From Escherichia coli (GTDB taxonomy: Bacteria; Pseudomonadota; Gammaproteobacteria; Enterobacterales; Enterobacteriaceae): DNA of 64,000 nt. This document shows, piece after piece, positions 6,277-56,316 of the stretch. The DNA lies in NCBI RefSeq assembly GCF_003334385.1, contig NZ_QOWN01000020.1; one strand, 5' to 3'. Below the pieces are notes generated by a model. It was not told the DNA's origin, ran no database searches, and saw only the letters and a list, made by a program, of their open reading frames with translations. Position 1 is the stretch's first letter. Each line of letters opens with the position of its first letter. The translations under genes and the position numbers were made by a program.

Positions 6277-7352
6277 CTGTACTGATTCACGTACTGGGAT
6301 CGGATATCCCTCACCATAACCGAACCGTTTTGCGGTTTTTCAATGACGCGCTGGCCGCGACGAGCGAGCACGCGCGCGAGTTTATGGTTGTTGGCAAGGA
6401 CGACGGCTTAAGTGATAGCTGTCCGGCGCTTTCTGTGCAATTTTTCCCTGGGAAAAAATCGCTGGCGGAAGCGGTCATCGCGAAAGCAAAAGCTAACCGT
6501 CAGCAGCGTTTTTTCTTCCACGGTCAGTTCAATCCCACACTGTGGCTGGCTCTGCTGAGTGGTGGCATTAAGCCCAGCCAGTTTTTCTGGCATATCTGGG
6601 GGGCAGACCTGTATGAGCTTTCCAGTGGCTTGAGATATAAGCTTTTTTACCCACTACGTCGCCTGGCGCAAAAGCGAGTCGGCTGTGTATTTGCCACCCG
6701 CGGCGATTTGAGCTTTTTTGCCAAAACGCACCCAAAGGTGCGGGGCGAACTGCTGTACTTCCCGACGCGGATGGACCCTTCGCTCAATACGATGGCGAAC
6801 GATCGGCAACGTGAAGGGAAAATGACCATTCTGGTGGGGAACTCCGGCGACCGCAGCAATGAGCATATTGCTGCCTTGCGCGCCGTTCATCAGCAATTTG
6901 GCGATACGGTAAAAGTGGTGGTGCCGATGGGATATCCGCCTAATAACGAAGCGTACATTGAGGAAGTTCGTCAGGCGGGGCTGGAGTTATTCAGCGAAGA
7001 AAATCTACAAATTCTGAGCGAAAAACTGGAATTTGACGCCTATCTGGCGCTACTTCGTCAGTGCGATCTTGGTTACTTTATTTTTGCCCGCCAGCAGGGC
7101 ATTGGTACGCTGTGCTTACTGATTCAGGCGGGCATTCCTTGTGTGCTTAACCGGGAAAATCCGTTCTGGCAGGATATGACGGAACAACATTTGCCGGTGC
7201 TGTTTACTACCGACGATCTCAACGAGGATATTGTGCGTGAAGCGCAGCGCCAGTTGGCGTCGGTGGATAAAAACACCATTGCCTTCTTTAGCCCTAACTA
7301 TCTACAAGGCTGGCAGCGGGCGTTGGCGATTGCCGCCGGGGAGGTCGCATGA
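6273..7352 (+). CDS. wecF: TDP-Fuc4NAc:lipid II 4-alpha-L-fucosaminyltransferase
   Basis: 359-aa ORF; 4-nt overlap with wzxE (ATGA); synteny. Confidence 0.92.
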
Positions 7353-8701
7353 GTCTGCTGCAATTCAGTGGCCTGTTTGTTGTCTGGCTGCTCTGCACGC
7401 TGTTTATTGCCACGCTGACCTGGTTTGAGTTTCGCCGTGTGCGCTTTAACTTCAATGTCTTCTTTTCATTGCTGTTTTTGCTCACCTTTTTCTTCGGCTT
7501 CCCGCTGACCAGCGTGCTGGTATTTCGCTTTGATGTTGGTGTCGCGCCGCCAGAAATCTTGTTGCAGGCGTTGCTTTCTGCGGGCTGCTTCTACGCGGTT
7601 TACTATGTCACCTACAAAACCCGCCTACGCAAACGCGTTGCTGATGTACCGCGCCGTCCGCTGTTTACCATGAACCGCGTGGAGACCAATCTTACGTGGG
7701 TGATCCTGATGGGTATCGCGCTGGTAAGCGTCGGCATCTTCTTCATGCACAACGGCTTTTTGCTGTTCCGGCTTAACTCCTACAGTCAGATCTTTTCCAG
7801 TGAAGTCTCCGGCGTGGCGTTAAAACGCTTCTTTTACTTTTTCATCCCGGCGATGCTGGTGGTCTACTTTCTGCGCCAGGACAGCAAAGCGTGGCTGTTT
7901 TTCCTCGTCAGCACGGTCGCCTTTGGCTTGCTGACTTATATGATTGTCGGCGGCACTCGCGCCAATATCATCATCGCATTCGCTATCTTCCTGTTTATTG
8001 GCATTATTCGCGGCTGGATTTCGTTGTGGATGCTGGCGGCGGCGGGCGTGCTGGGGATTGTTGGCATGTTCTGGCTGGCACTAAAACGCTATGGAATGAA
8101 TGTGAGCGGCGATGAAGCGTTCTATACGTTTCTCTATCTCACTCGCGACACCTTCTCGCCGTGGGAGAATCTGGCGTTGCTGTTGCAGAACTACGACAAC
8201 ATCGACTTCCAGGGCCTGGCTCCAATTGTCCGCGATTTCTATGTCTTTATCCCTTCCTGGCTGTGGCCGGGTCGCCCGAGTATGGTGCTGAACTCAGCCA
8301 ACTACTTTACCTGGGAAGTGCTGAATAACCACTCCGGACTGGCGATCTCGCCTACGCTTATAGGCTCACTGGTGGTGATGGGCGGCGCGTTGTTCATCCC
8401 GCTCGGGGCGATCGTGGTTGGTCTGATCATCAAATGGTTCGACTGGCTGTATGAGCTGGGCAACCGCGAGCCTAATCGCTATAAAGCTGCGATATTGCAC
8501 AGTTTCTGCTTTGGGGCGATCTTCAATATGATCGTGCTGGCGCGTGAAGGGCTGGATTCGTTTGTCTCACGCGTGGTCTTTTTTATCGTGGTCTTCGGCG
8601 CATGTCTGATGATCGCAAAACTGTTGTACTGGCTTTTTGAAAGCGCCGGACTCATTCATAAACGTACAAAATCATCGCTCCGGACGCAGGTTGAAGGATA
8701 A
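7349..8701 (+). CDS. wzyE: ECA polymerase (Wzy family)
   Basis: 450-aa polytopic membrane ORF; 4-nt overlap with wecF; synteny. Confidence 0.92.
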
Positions 8702-11122: not shown

Positions 11123-11199
<77 letters not shown>

Positions 11200-11256
11200 T
11201 TTAGTCCCGGCGCTTGAGCTGCGGTGGTAGTAATACCGCGTAACAAGATTTGTAGT

Positions 11257-11333
11257 GGTGGCTATAGCTCAGTTGGTAGAGCCCTGGATTGTGATTCCAG
11301 TTGTCGTGGGTTCGAATCCCATTAGCCACCCCA
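11257..11333 (+). tRNA. hisR: tRNA-His (anticodon GTG) with encoded G-1
   Basis: GGTGGCTATAGCTCAGTTGGTAGAGC...TTGTGAT...GGTTCGAATCC...CCACCCCA; extra 5' G characteristic of tRNA-His. Confidence 0.97.
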
Positions 11334-11353
11334 TTATTAGAAGTTGTGACAAT

Positions 11354-11440
11354 GCGAAGGTGGCGGAATTGGTAGACGCGCTAGCTTCAGGTGTTAGTGT
11401 CCTTACGGACGTGGGGGTTCAAGTCCCCCCCCTCGCACCA
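11354..11440 (+). tRNA. leuT: tRNA-Leu (anticodon CAG), class II with long variable arm
   Basis: 87-nt GCGAAGGTGGCGGAATTGGTAGACGCG...CTTCAGGT...GGTTCAAGTCC...CGCACCA. Confidence 0.97.
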
Positions 11441-11482
11441 CGACTTTAAAGAATTGAACTAAAAATTCAAAAAGCAGTATTT

Positions 11483-11559
11483 CGGCGAGTAGCGCAGCTT
11501 GGTAGCGCAACTGGTTTGGGACCAGTGGGTCGGAGGTTCGAATCCTCTCTCGCCGACCA
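11483..11559 (+). tRNA. proM: tRNA-Pro (anticodon TGG)
   Basis: 77-nt CGGCGAGTAGCGCAGCTTGGTAGCGC...GGTTTGGGACC...GGTTCGAATCC...CGCCGACCA. Confidence 0.97.
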
Positions 11560-14764: not shown

Positions 14765-15188
14765 GCAAAATGCTCCGGTTTCATGTCATCAAAATGATGA
14801 CGTAATTAAGCATTGATAATTGAGATCCCTCTCCCTGACAGGATGATTACATAAATAATAGTGACAAAAATAAATTATTTATTTATCCAGAAAATGAATT
14901 GGAAAATCAGGAGAGCGTTTTCAATCCTACCTCTGGCGCAGTTGATATGTAAGGCAGGTTTATTATATCGCGTTGATTATTGATGCTGTTTTTAGTTTTA
15001 ACGGCAATTAATATATGTGTTATTAATTGAATGAATTTTATCATTCATAATAAGTATGTGTAGGATCAAGCTCAGGTTAAATATTCACTCAGGAAGTTAT
15101 TACTCAGGAAGCAAAGAGGATTACAGAATTATCTCATAACAAGTGTTAAGGGATGTTATTTCCCGATTCTCTGTGGCATAATAAACGA

Positions 15189-15395
15189 GTAGATGCTCAT
15201 TCCATCTCTTATGTTCGCCTTAGTGCCTCATAAACTCCGGAATGACGCAGAGCCGTTTACGGTGCTTATCGTCCACTGACAGATGTCGCTTATGCCTCAT
15301 CAGACACCATGGACACAACGTTGAGTGAAGCACCCACTTGTTGTCATACAGACCTGTTTTAACGCCTGCTCCGTAATAAGAGCAGGCGTTTTTTT
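15189..15395 (+). ncRNA. glmZ: small RNA GlmZ (activator of glmS translation)
   Basis: Sequence recognised as GlmZ (GTAGATGCTCATTCCATCTCTTATG...); ends in hairpin GCCTGCTC-CGTAATAAG-AGCAGGCG plus T7; convergent with hemY. Confidence 0.85.
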
Positions 15396-15442: not shown

Positions 15443-16639
15443 CTACTGTGGTGGGTTGTTCTGCAACGTTAACATCAAACCGTCGTGACGCATCGCTGCA
15501 GCTTCTTCCGGCTTGTGCAGTCTGTCCAGCGCGTCGGCAAGCCATGCGTAATCGTAGGCGTCCGGACGTTGTTTCAGCGCTGCGCGGAAGGCGAGCGATG
15601 CTTCCTGCCATTCTCCGTGCTTCATCAGTGACTGGCCCAGTGTGCTCCACAACAGCGGGCGATCGCCGACGTTTTTGATCTGCTGGCGCAGCACTTTTTC
15701 CAGCTGTTCCGGATTGTTGGTTTTCAGTCGAGGAATCGGCAGCAGTAGGCGATCGTCGTACTGGCGTTTCAGGCCATCGATGATAATTTGCTGGGCAGTA
15801 TCATGATCGTCACATTCAATAAGATGTTCCGCCATTGCCACCTGCAACGCTACCTGATGACGCGTTTTCCGGCTTTGGTTTTTCCACCAGTTACGCAAAC
15901 CTTCACTACCGTTATCGGCACGCGCCTGATCCATCAGGCCAATCCATGCCTGTTGTTCCAGCATTGCACGATGTTCTTCATCACCAACATGGGCTTTCGC
16001 CATTGATGGGATGATATCCAGCAGAGAACTCCATGCACCTGTGCGGATATACGCCTGTTCCGCCAGACGTAATACTTCCGGATGGCGTGGCGTAACTTCC
16101 AGCAGCTTATCCACGCCGTGGCGTGCAGCATGGTTTTCATTACGGGCCAGTTGCAGACGTACACGGGTGATTTCTACCGGAATGGTGTCATTGCCGGCCA
16201 GCTCCGCTGCGCGTTCCAGATGTTGGTTGGCGCGCGCTTCATCACCACGTTGTTGCGCGGCTTCGGCAGCCAGTAGATAGTTCACCACCGGTTGTTCAGC
16301 GTGATCGGCATTTTTCGCCATCAGCTTTTCAACTTGCTGATAATCGCCTTCCGCCAGTTTCAGCAGCGCCTGTTCGGTCTGCTTACGTGCACGGCGACGC
16401 TTACGCCCGACAAACCACCCACGGGTGTGCGCGCCAGTGCGGAAGATCCGCCGCAGTAGCCACTCAATGGCAAACAGCACTACCATCGCCAGAATCAATA
16501 TGATCGCCAGGCCCGTGACGCTGGTTTCGATATTGTAGTTGTCGGTCTGGATCAGCACATAACCCTGATGACCGGCAATCATCGGGCCAACCACTATCCC
16601 CGCAATCAGCAACACAAAGAGTAATAACACTTTTAGCAT
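15443..16639 (-). CDS. hemY: HemY protein (TPR-containing inner membrane protein of hemCDXY operon)
   Basis: 398-aa ORF, N-terminal TM helices, synteny downstream of hemX. Confidence 0.93.
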   Translation of the reverse strand: MLKVLLLFVLLIAGIVVGPMIAGHQGYVLIQTDNYNIETSVTGLAIILILAMVVLFAIEWLLRRIFRTGAHTRGWFVGRKRRRARKQTEQALLKLAEGDYQQVEKLMAKNADHAEQPVVNYLLAAEAAQQRGDEARANQHLERAAELAGNDTIPVEITRVRLQLARNENHAARHGVDKLLEVTPRHPEVLRLAEQAYIRTGAWSSLLDIIPSMAKAHVGDEEHRAMLEQQAWIGLMDQARADNGSEGLRNWWKNQSRKTRHQVALQVAMAEHLIECDDHDTAQQIIIDGLKRQYDDRLLLPIPRLKTNNPEQLEKVLRQQIKNVGDRPLLWSTLGQSLMKHGEWQEASLAFRAALKQRPDAYDYAWLADALDRLHKPEEAAAMRHDGLMLTLQNNPPQ

Positions 16640-16641
16640 GG

Positions 16642-17877
16642 TTATTCTCCTTGCGGCGCGGCTGCCGGAGTATCACCTTGCGGTGCAGGTGCAGGTGCAG
16701 GTGCAGGTGCAGGTGCAGGTGCAGGTGCAGGTGCAGGTGCAGGTGCAGGTTTAGCTTCCGTTGTCCCTGCTGCCGGTTGTGCCAGCAGGTTACGCACGCG
16801 AGTCTGCATCAGTTTTTCCAGCATCGCCTGGCTTTGCAGGGTTTCCGGAAGATCCATCGAGATATTTTGCTGGCTTAACTGGTCCACCTCGTCGAGGAAC
16901 GCTTTGGTGGTGGCATCATCAGTATCGTAGTAAGCACGTACCCAGGTGGAGACGTTCTCCAGCGCCTGGCGATAAGTCTCTTCCTGGTGACGCGGTACAG
17001 CTTGTGCTGCGACCAGCAGGCGAGAGCGAATATTTTCGCGCAGATAGATATCCTGATTTGGCGCTAACAGCGGTACGGCGGTGTCATCACGACGGCGAAT
17101 CGTAATGAAGTTGTCCATAAAGTTCTGCCAGCTTTTTTGCAGATTGATACGCCATTCGCTGATGGAACTGGAAAGCTCTTCACCGTCTGAATCCATCGGC
17201 GAACCATCGCTGTCATTATCGGCCAGACGCAGGTTATCTACCTGATTTGAAAGCTGATTAAGCTTAAGGATGATGCCGTCATAATCCACCTGCGATACTG
17301 CAGAAAGGCTGGCGATATCATCGGTAATTGCCCGACGAACGGTAATCAGACTCGGGTCATTCATATCCGCCAGGCTGGCGTCTGCACTTTTCAGCAACGC
17401 TGCAGCGGTCGTGACGTCCTGATCGCTCCACAGCTTCCGTCCGGCGAGTTTCACCAGAAAATCGGCCTGAGCCAGCAGCCAGGTTTTAGCATCGCTGCCG
17501 GAAATGGTGGCGACCTTTTGTTGGACCTCATCCAACTGTTTTGCCAGCGTTTCTTGCTGACGATTCGCCTGCTTAAGCTGTGCAGCTTGTTGCTTAATAA
17601 TGCCTTCCAGCTCGGCTTTTTGGCTCTCCTGGGCTTTTTGCAATGCCGTCAGTTGGTTAGCCAGGGCATCGCTGGTGGCGGTCTGATTGACGGCCTGTTG
17701 TTTACCCCAGCCATACAAACCGACGCCCGCCGCCAGAGCAATAGCGATAGCCACCGCGCTGAGAATCAATGCGGTATTGTTCTTACTCTTTTTTTCTGTT
17801 GCGACAGGTTGTGACGTGGTGTCCACGGCCTCCCTGGTCTCTTCAACCACGGCGGAGGTTTTTTCTTGTTCCGTCAT
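16642..17877 (-). CDS. hemX: HemX protein (inner membrane, coiled-coil, C-terminal Pro-Ala repeat)
   Basis: 411-aa ORF; TM segment near N-terminus, Q/A-rich coiled-coil, C-terminal (PA)11; synteny hemC-hemD-hemX-hemY. Confidence 0.9.
16685..16750. repeat. perfect hexanucleotide tandem repeat (GCAGGT)x11 inside hemX coding sequence
   Basis: Directly visible: 66 nt of uninterrupted GCAGGT units, encoding (Pro-Ala)11 on the minus strand. Confidence 0.98.
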
Positions 17878-17898: not shown

Positions 17899-18639
17899 TT
17901 ATTGTAATGCCCGTAAAAGCGCATCGTTGTCAGCGTTATCGGCGACCTTAATGTCTTGCCAGCCCAGTTCCCGGGCGAGTTTCGCCAAACGCTCACTGAC
18001 GACCAATAGTCGACAGTGTAGTAACCAGTGCTCACGATACCATTGTGGGATCAGCGACCAGAGTTGCTGCAACATTTCACCGCTGGTAACAACGACCGTC
18101 GTCACCTCGCGGGATTGCCAGCGCATCGCTTCTTCTGCACCATCGTAATGGATTGCGCATCGTTGATAACATTCACAAAAAGTGACCTCAGCACCGCGCG
18201 CCGTCAGGGTATCCCCAATTAGCTCACGACCACCATTGCCACGTAATATCAGCGCACGTTTGCCCGCAATATTTTGTAATTCAGGTAATTGTAGCAAGAC
18301 TTCGCTGATTTCCCGATCCTGCGGGTAGAGAATCTTCTGTCCGCTTACGGTATGTAGTGCCAGTGCGGTGGTGCGTCCAATGGCGAAATAATCAGGTAGT
18401 CGGGGCCATTTACGATCTTGCTGATGCAGCTGTGATTGGGCAAAAGCAACCGCGTGTTGCGAGAGGGCAAACAACAGATCGCTCTCCCCCAGCGCTGCCA
18501 GTTGATCAGCAAGTTGCGGTAATTGTTGACCCGGAGAAAACTCAATCAGCGGAAAATGCCAGGCCACCTGCCCCAGTGTGCGCAGACGGCTCACTAACTC
18601 TTCTCCAGCGGGAGACGGGCGGGTGACAAGGATACTCAT
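17899..18639 (-). CDS. hemD: uroporphyrinogen-III synthase
   Basis: 246-aa ORF; 4-nt overlap with hemC stop; synteny. Confidence 0.93.
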
Positions 18640-19577
18640 GCCGGGGCGTCTCCGTTATAGACTTCAGCGAGGATCTCGCGCGCGCCGTTATTCAGTAGCT
18701 CTTCTGCCAGCGAAATCCCCATTTGTTCGGCATCTTGCGGCGCACCGCGGCGTTCACCGCGAATAATCTGCGAACCGTCCGGCGCGCCGACCAGCGCACG
18801 CAGCCAGATTTCGCCATCAATAAGCTCGGCGTAGCTACCAATTGGCACCTGACATCCGCCTTCGAGACGGGTATTCATGGCGCGTTCTGCGGTAACGCGC
18901 AGTGCAGTTTCGTGGTGATTCAGCGCGGCAAGCAGCTCGCGAGTGCGTGAATCATCAAGGCGGCATTCAATACCCACCGCACCTTGTCCTACCGCCGGAA
19001 GAGAAATCTCGGGTGGCAACGCGGCGCGAATACGTGACTCCAGACCTAAACGTTTTAGTCCGGCTACGGCAAGAATGATGGCATCGTATTCGCCGTTATC
19101 CAGTTTGCTCAGGCGAGTGCCGACGTTGCCGCGCAGGGAGCGGATAATCAGATCCGGACGGCGTTCAGCCAGTTGGCACTGGCGACGTAAACTGGACGTC
19201 CCGACGATACTGCCTGCCGGTAACGCATCCAGACTGTCATAGTTATTGGACACAAAGGCATCGCGAGGATCTTCACGCTCACAAATAGTGACCAGTCCCA
19301 GACCTTGCGGGAATTCAACCGGCACATCTTTCATTGAGTGTACGGCGATATCGGCGCGATTTTCGAGGAGCGCGACTTCCAGCTCTTTTACAAATAAGCC
19401 TTTTCCGCCTACTTTCGCCAGCGGCGTATCAAGAATCACATCGCCGCGCGTCACCATCGGTACCAGTTCAACGACCAGGCCCGGATGGCTCGCCATCAAC
19501 TTGTCTTTGACATAGTGTGCCTGCCAGAGTGCAAGTGGGCTTTGGCGTGTGGCAATTCTTAAAACATTGTCTAACAT
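18636..19577 (-). CDS. hemC: porphobilinogen deaminase (hydroxymethylbilane synthase)
   Basis: ORF trimmed to [20 protein letters not shown] start (313 aa); HMBS family. Confidence 0.93.
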
Positions 19578-19803
19578 GCTTGTTACCGTCATTATCATCC
19601 GTGGTCCATCCTAACATCCTTGCCAGAGTGATGTCAGTGTTGTGGTGAAACGTAGACGCCTGCGCAAACCGTAAAATGAGGTCTGGCAGTGGATCCTGAC
19701 AGGCGTTTCACGCCGTTGTAATAAGGAATTTACAGAGAATAAACGGTGCTACACTTGTATGTAGCGCATCTTTCTTTACGGTCAATCAGCAAGGTGTTAA
19801 ATT

Positions 19804-48434: not shown

Positions 48435-50677
<2,243 letters not shown>

Positions 50678-56132: not shown

Positions 56133-56316
<184 letters not shown>

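Follow-up and report, generated by a model that had tools for sequence, protein, structure and literature searches.

A coding hexanucleotide array at the 3' end of Escherichia coli hemX is the typing marker CVN014 and varies in whole, in-frame units

The Hexanucleotide Array Within hemX

The hemX gene of Escherichia coli carries an uninterrupted hexanucleotide repeat close to its 3' end in the DNA analyzed here, a stretch of 64,000 nucleotides of contig NZ_QOWN01000020.1 (assembly GCF_003334385.1) that is called the window below. This raises the questions of whether the repeat is genuine, whether its copy number differs between strains and, if it does, whether such differences matter for HemX, for the gene downstream or for neither. 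Tandem Repeats Finder (TRF) detected a period-6 array at 16682-16750 of the window, with 11.5 copies, 100% matches, 0 indels and a score of 138, while the second-best array within the 64-kb window scored 57. The eleven GCAGGT units that an earlier note on this DNA had described on the plus strand were found at exactly 16685-16750, and the periodicity extends 3 nt more, to 16682. TRF and the minus-strand open reading frame (ORF) together also confirmed its view that the tract lies within hemX and specifies a (PA)11 run close to the C-terminus. The C-terminal end of HemX consists of TTEAK, then (PA)11 and then 13 residues. The chance of a perfect hexamer run of 66 nt is negligible, about 4^-60 per position, and the array was present at the matching site in independent complete genomes. 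The features of the locus are the following:

16642..17877, minus strand: hemX coding sequence, 411 amino acids plus stop, with an N-terminal membrane anchor, a long helix/coiled coil, PF04375 and an Ala/Pro-rich tail (ORF, annotation, Pfam and structural model)
16789..17490, minus strand: PF04375 (HemX) domain, residues 130-363, with the repeat outside it (Pfam, E = 4e-108)
16645..16776, minus strand: Ala/Pro-rich, length-variable tail, residues 368-411, unconserved except for the final A-x-QGE (80-species comparison)
16682..16750, minus strand: (ACCTGC)x11.5 perfect hexanucleotide microsatellite, the CVN014 VNTR array, allele 11 (TRF and published formula)
16684..16749, minus strand: (CCT GCA)x11 codons, encoding (Pro-Ala)11, HemX residues 377-398 (ORF translation)
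16637..16650, minus strand: hemX-hemY junction, with the Shine-Dalgarno GGAG at 16650-16647, the hemX stop TAA at 16644-16642 and the hemY ATG at 16639-16637
15443..16639, minus strand: hemY coding sequence, immediately 3' of hemX (ORF and annotation)

The gene order in this region is cyaA / hemC-hemD-hemX-hemY / glmZ / aslA, and hemX is annotated in 5426/5426 complete E. coli genomes of the collection. At the junction of hemX and hemY, the GGAG Shine-Dalgarno sequence of hemY is made by the HemX codons for Gly-Glu. The arrangement CAAGGAGAR-TAA-N2-3-ATG, with the hemX stop 2-3 nt before the hemY ATG, was kept in 80/80 Enterobacteriaceae species, and the translation of hemY is probably coupled to that of hemX.

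Some additional observations were made in the window. The longest ORF of hemC (18636-19598) would encode 320 aa, compared with 942 nt and 313 aa for the annotated K-12 hemC, and this ORF start is probably too far upstream. TRF also listed 1.9 copies of a 15-16-nt unit at 15082-15111 (score 53), about 80 nt upstream of glmZ, an sRNA gene. Rfam identified the small RNA Erse (48789-49040, 319 bits) and naRNA4 (56186-56263, 92 bits), and four tRNA genes are clustered at 11123-11556; these features are unrelated to the hemX repeat.

The Array Corresponds to the MLVA Marker CVN014

The hemX hexamer array is an already known and routinely used typing VNTR, CVN014, of the generic E. coli MLVA. This locus reportedly belongs to the GECM-7/GECM-10 schemes of Lindstedt et al. 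in 2007 and Lobersli et al. in 2012. Both of its primers were located in the window, each at one site:

16754..16773, minus strand: CVN014-R primer site, GCAGCRGGGACAACGGAAGC (one match, 0 mismatches)
16597..16620, plus strand: CVN014-F primer site, TCCCCGCAATCAGCAAMACAAAGA, within the first hemY codons (one match, 0 mismatches)

The primers and the rule allele = (product - 111)/6 are printed in Table 1 of PMC8143711. The product expected from the window (16597..16773) has 177 bp, and 177 - 111 = 66 = 11 x 6, which corresponds to allele 11. Among the O157-specific MLVA loci, putative primer sequences of PulseNet VNTR-9 and VNTR-19 gave no match in the window when up to 3 mismatches were allowed.

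CVN014 has been described as the locus showing the "largest variation", with alleles 2-12 (PMC5217547), and as the most variable locus both among serotypes and within a serotype, with alleles 5-11 in O157:H7 and a maximum of 16 (PMC3424435). Alleles 2-11 were reported within ST131 by itself (PMC3407997). This hypervariability is the reason for its use as a typing marker. In the open-access typing papers searched, CVN014 was nowhere tied by name to hemX or to an effect on a protein. Literature searches that combined hemX or uroporphyrinogen with terms for tandem-repeat typing brought up no paper on E. coli, and the one Salmonella paper found mentions hemX for a SNP only. The hexamer motifs by themselves retrieved nothing but unrelated papers on E-boxes and restriction sites.

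Copy Number Varies in Steps of Six Nucleotides

The earlier note had proposed that the copy number is probably strain-variable. A query of 341 nt that spans the array found a match in each of the 5426 complete E. coli genomes of the collection, and alleles were counted in 118 distinct genomes, pooled from two systematic samples taken down the rankings of the 341-nt and 751-nt queries. The spans differed only by multiples of 6 nt, and the samples from both queries agreed. The proposal was borne out, with 17 alleles (0-15 and 19 units) among the 118 genomes, a Nei diversity of 0.90 and a median of 6 units. Alleles of at least 11 units made up about 11% of this sample and the allele of 11 units itself about 3%; that of 2 units reached 17%, a figure inflated because the collection includes laboratory derivatives of K-12. 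The frequencies were similar to those of the CVN014 alleles in PMC5217547. Moreover, the extracted alleles of 2, 3, 5, 6, 7, 11, 13, 16, 17, 19 and 23 units were all perfect and uninterrupted.

Among individual strains, BL21 has 6 units, K-12 has 2 and strain W21 has a single one. The hemX gene of MG1655 (b3803, 1182 nt) encodes 393 aa with 2 units, in agreement with the suggestion in the earlier note that the reference HemX is shorter than 411 aa. In NCTC11023, the whole array and 15 nt of the downstream tail are gone, between two CC dinucleotides, which leaves a HemX of 384 aa. In a trio of O157:H7 genomes, the flanks are identical and the unit numbers are 3, 7 and 11.

The variation was also observed on a single haplotype. 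A 10-kb query around hemX found at least 60 genomes with flanks around 100.0% identical to the window, and the 60 matches listed carried these alleles:

5 units: 16 genomes
6 units: 27 genomes
11 units: 12 genomes
16 units: 1 genome
17 units: 3 genomes
23 units: 1 genome

One genome from each of the 5-, 6-, 16-, 17- and 23-unit classes was extracted, and all five had perfect arrays and the flanking SNP pattern of the window. Since identical 10-kb flanks accompany different unit numbers, the copy number shifts faster than point substitutions accumulate in the flanks. E. coli as a whole covers a range of at least 0-23 units. In complete genomes this range is wider than the 2-12 alleles (PMC5217547) or the maximum of 16 (PMC3424435) found by typing.

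At least nine genomes among the matches listed, with 10-kb flanks otherwise around 100% identical, carry an IS1 between glmZ and aslA. In NZ_CP075462.1, for example, it occupies 7272-7969 of the extracted locus, around 74 nt from the annotated start of aslA, on its upstream side. In the window, the site corresponds to the stretch bounded by glmZ (15189-15395) and the start of aslA (around 14764).

The Repeat Lies in a Variable C-Terminal Tail of HemX

Pfam detected no domain in HemX after residue 363. The tail was compared across 80 Enterobacteriaceae species, with one genome each. The segment that follows the conserved RVRNLLAQ measures 17-52 aa and is 60% Ala+Pro, as compared with 15% in the remaining protein. 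It could not be aligned across the 80 species except for its constant QGE end; the invariant columns end at Q367 and restart at A407, with none between. The codons of the terminal QGE, CAAGGAGAR, double as the Shine-Dalgarno sequence for hemY, and the conservation of this end thus probably reflects a constraint on the nucleotides.

An AlphaFold model of HemX was built from an alignment of 21 sequences and reached a mean pLDDT of only 56, a low confidence overall. It places a long helix at residues 42-125, after a hydrophobic segment, and further helices up to residue 365, while residues 367-411 are without structure at a pLDDT below 50. This low-confidence model hints that the C-terminal tail may be disordered. 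A lysine-rich segment precedes the hydrophobic stretch which, by the positive-inside rule, suggests a cytoplasmic N-terminus, with the body and the tail of the protein in the periplasm. HemX has been described as a distant homologue of Mic60 without the mitofilin domain (bioRxiv 10.1101/2022.06.14.496148), and the hemX deletion strain of the Keio collection is viable (PMC12282077). Loss of hemX reportedly lowers the sensitivity to gentamicin.

The earlier note had described the (PA)11 tract as a flexible linker which in-frame changes would only lengthen or shorten. The second part of this description held. The word "linker" did not, since only 13 residues, without a domain, follow the tract, which makes it a terminal tail and not an inter-domain linker.

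The PGAP product name for HemX in essentially all genomes is "uroporphyrinogen-III C-methyltransferase", and the K-12 RefSeq record names the protein "PF04375 family protein HemX". The Pfam scan found no SAM-dependent tetrapyrrole methylase domain in HemX, detecting PF04375 and weak coiled-coil-type noise only. The methyltransferase name looks like a legacy misannotation.

Origin of the Array Across Species

In most genera, the HemX tail contains short Ala-Pro runs in mixed synonymous codons, without a DNA repeat. Pure CCTGCA runs were found in E. albertii (6 units), in cryptic-clade Escherichia genomes (7 units), in Raoultella ornithinolytica (4 units) and in a Citrobacter clade (sp. NCU1, Awk 4 and R56), where 10-14 perfect copies lie at the 3' end of hemX. 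The other Citrobacter species examined had no CCTGCA array. Judging from these sequences, the Citrobacter expansion is parallel to, and independent of, that in Escherichia, and the array may serve as a VNTR marker in those species. Together with the Ala/Pro tail present in every genus, this expansion shows, as far as sequence comparison goes, that the tail is constrained to some degree, in its composition at least.

The array was probably born in an ancestral Ala/Pro tail whose synonymous codons had become uniform. From a few identical units onward, slippage would outrun point mutation and the array would stay pure. The lack of interruptions in all of the extracted alleles fits such a purifying role of slippage.

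Slippage and the Alternative Explanations

The array is very probably a coding microsatellite in which slippage gives in-frame, near-neutral changes in the length of a probably disordered Pro-Ala tail. Slipped-strand mispairing in replication or repair would add or remove whole 6-nt units, so that the reading frame would always be kept and the length of the Pro-Ala run would be the sole effect at the level of the product. As expected from slippage, alleles differed by whole units with unchanged flanks in the 118 spans, in the O157:H7 trio and on the 10-kb haplotype. Additionally, both single strands of the array were predicted to form hairpins in which 4-bp TGCA helices are stacked with 2x2 mismatches between them, at energies of -15.0 and -12.2 kcal/mol and z-scores, relative to shuffled sequences, of -2.6 and -5.1; such hairpins could stabilize slipped intermediates. 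The coexistence of alleles suggests that changes in tail length are most likely neutral or nearly so. Near-neutral changes would in turn allow many alleles to coexist, making the locus a good epidemiological marker.

Short tandem repeats are sometimes miscalled on some long-read platforms, and nothing more specific speaks for an assembly or sequencing artefact, that is, a repeat collapsed or expanded in the present assembly. The probability of this is negligible, since the 11-unit alleles are identical in many independent complete genomes and PCR fragment sizing in several laboratories finds a matching range, allele 11 included. A slippage mechanism and high mutability are also features of phase-variable contingency loci, in which case frameshifts would switch hemX or hemY on and off. 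However, a unit of 6 nt is a multiple of 3 and every change is therefore in frame, which to all intents excludes phase variation: the differences among the 118 spans are all multiples of 6, every extracted allele is in frame and keeps the C-terminal PQ(G/A)D..PQGE, and the annotation shows an intact hemX CDS in each extracted record. This candidate was thus refuted by the in-frame alleles and the 6-nt steps. A role at the RNA level, by which the copy number would alter the structure of the mRNA and thereby the translation of hemY or the stability of the operon transcript, is highly improbable. The array does lie near the ribosome-binding site of hemY, 45-110 nt upstream of the start codon, and the repeat RNA is predicted to self-fold with around -2.6 kcal/mol per unit. 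Nevertheless, in partition-function folding of 0 to 25 units, the mean unpaired probability of the hemY ribosome-binding site was 0.30 throughout, and the predicted pairing of the Shine-Dalgarno sequence was independent of the copy number. Moreover, with the hemX stop 2 nt before the hemY ATG, ribosomes completing hemX would open the region if the two genes are coupled as proposed. Control of the hemY ribosome-binding site by RNA structure was consequently rejected as the main explanation, there being no predicted change at 0-25 units. The predicted base pairing of the hemY Shine-Dalgarno sequence is in itself consistent with translational coupling.

The length of the tail could also be functional, the stiff, extended (Pro-Ala)n run setting how far the C-terminus of HemX, as an inner-membrane-anchored protein of Mic60-like architecture, extends into the periplasm and its copy number acting as a selectable tuning knob for envelope or haem function. 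This is unlikely. It is favored by the description of HemX as a distant Mic60 homologue (bioRxiv 10.1101/2022.06.14.496148), by the retention of an Ala/Pro-rich tail in 80/80 species and by the independent expansion of the CCTGCA unit in Citrobacter. On the other hand, the tract is followed by only 13 unconserved to weakly conserved residues and has no domain to position, and the conserved terminal QGE is probably accounted for by the overlapping Shine-Dalgarno sequence of hemY. From 0 to 23 units coexist, even within one haplotype, the best-studied laboratory strains K-12 and BL21 have 2 and 6 units, and the searchable literature reports no phenotype. Pro-Ala repeats adopt an extended conformation of roughly 0.6 nm per dipeptide. 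A further form of this proposal, in which the copy number would alter the C-terminal reach by up to around 14 nm (0 to 23 units) with an envelope or haem-biogenesis phenotype, is likewise unlikely; if true, it would explain why all Enterobacteriaceae retain an Ala/Pro tail and why the unit expanded in parallel in Citrobacter.

Significance and Relation to Known Systems

Near-neutral slippage at this locus matters little beyond bookkeeping, CVN014 having been a routine E. coli typing marker since 2007. What is added here is an explicit link of CVN014 to the gene hemX and, outside the conserved domain, to a (Pro-Ala)n tail of its protein, a change of the array within a 10-kb haplotype that is otherwise invariant, and an independent expansion in a Citrobacter clade. 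The variation of the repeat is also the source of many HemX RefSeq protein accessions of differing length, and caution is advised against reading such length differences as functional divergence.

At the DNA level, no difference was found between CVN014 and the hemX array, as both primers, the 6-bp unit and the 111-bp offset agree, and the high variability of CVN014 in the literature agrees with that of the genome sample analyzed here. At the protein level, Ala-Pro-rich or X-Pro spacers are known from the inter-domain linkers of the pyruvate dehydrogenase E2p, the hinge of OmpA and the Pro-rich spacer of TonB, the last of which is periplasmic and tolerates changes in length. The HemX tract resembles them in composition and in an expected extended, semi-rigid conformation, but those spacers join two folded or functional domains, whereas the HemX tract has no domain downstream. 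With the contingency loci of Haemophilus and Neisseria, the hemX array shares a perfect short tandem repeat, slippage and high mutability. Those loci, however, are switched on and off by frameshift, while the hemX unit is a multiple of three and produces none.

The closing comparison is with other in-frame coding VNTRs of 6 bp in enterobacterial typing, such as the STTR loci of Salmonella Typhimurium that PMC5183578 deals with. STTR5 is a coding hexamer repeat. Like the hemX array, such coding hexamers mutate stepwise, faster than SNPs arise, and serve as epidemiological markers. They lie in other genes and in another species, whereas the hemX locus is found in 5426/5426 E. coli genomes and is not restricted to a lineage.
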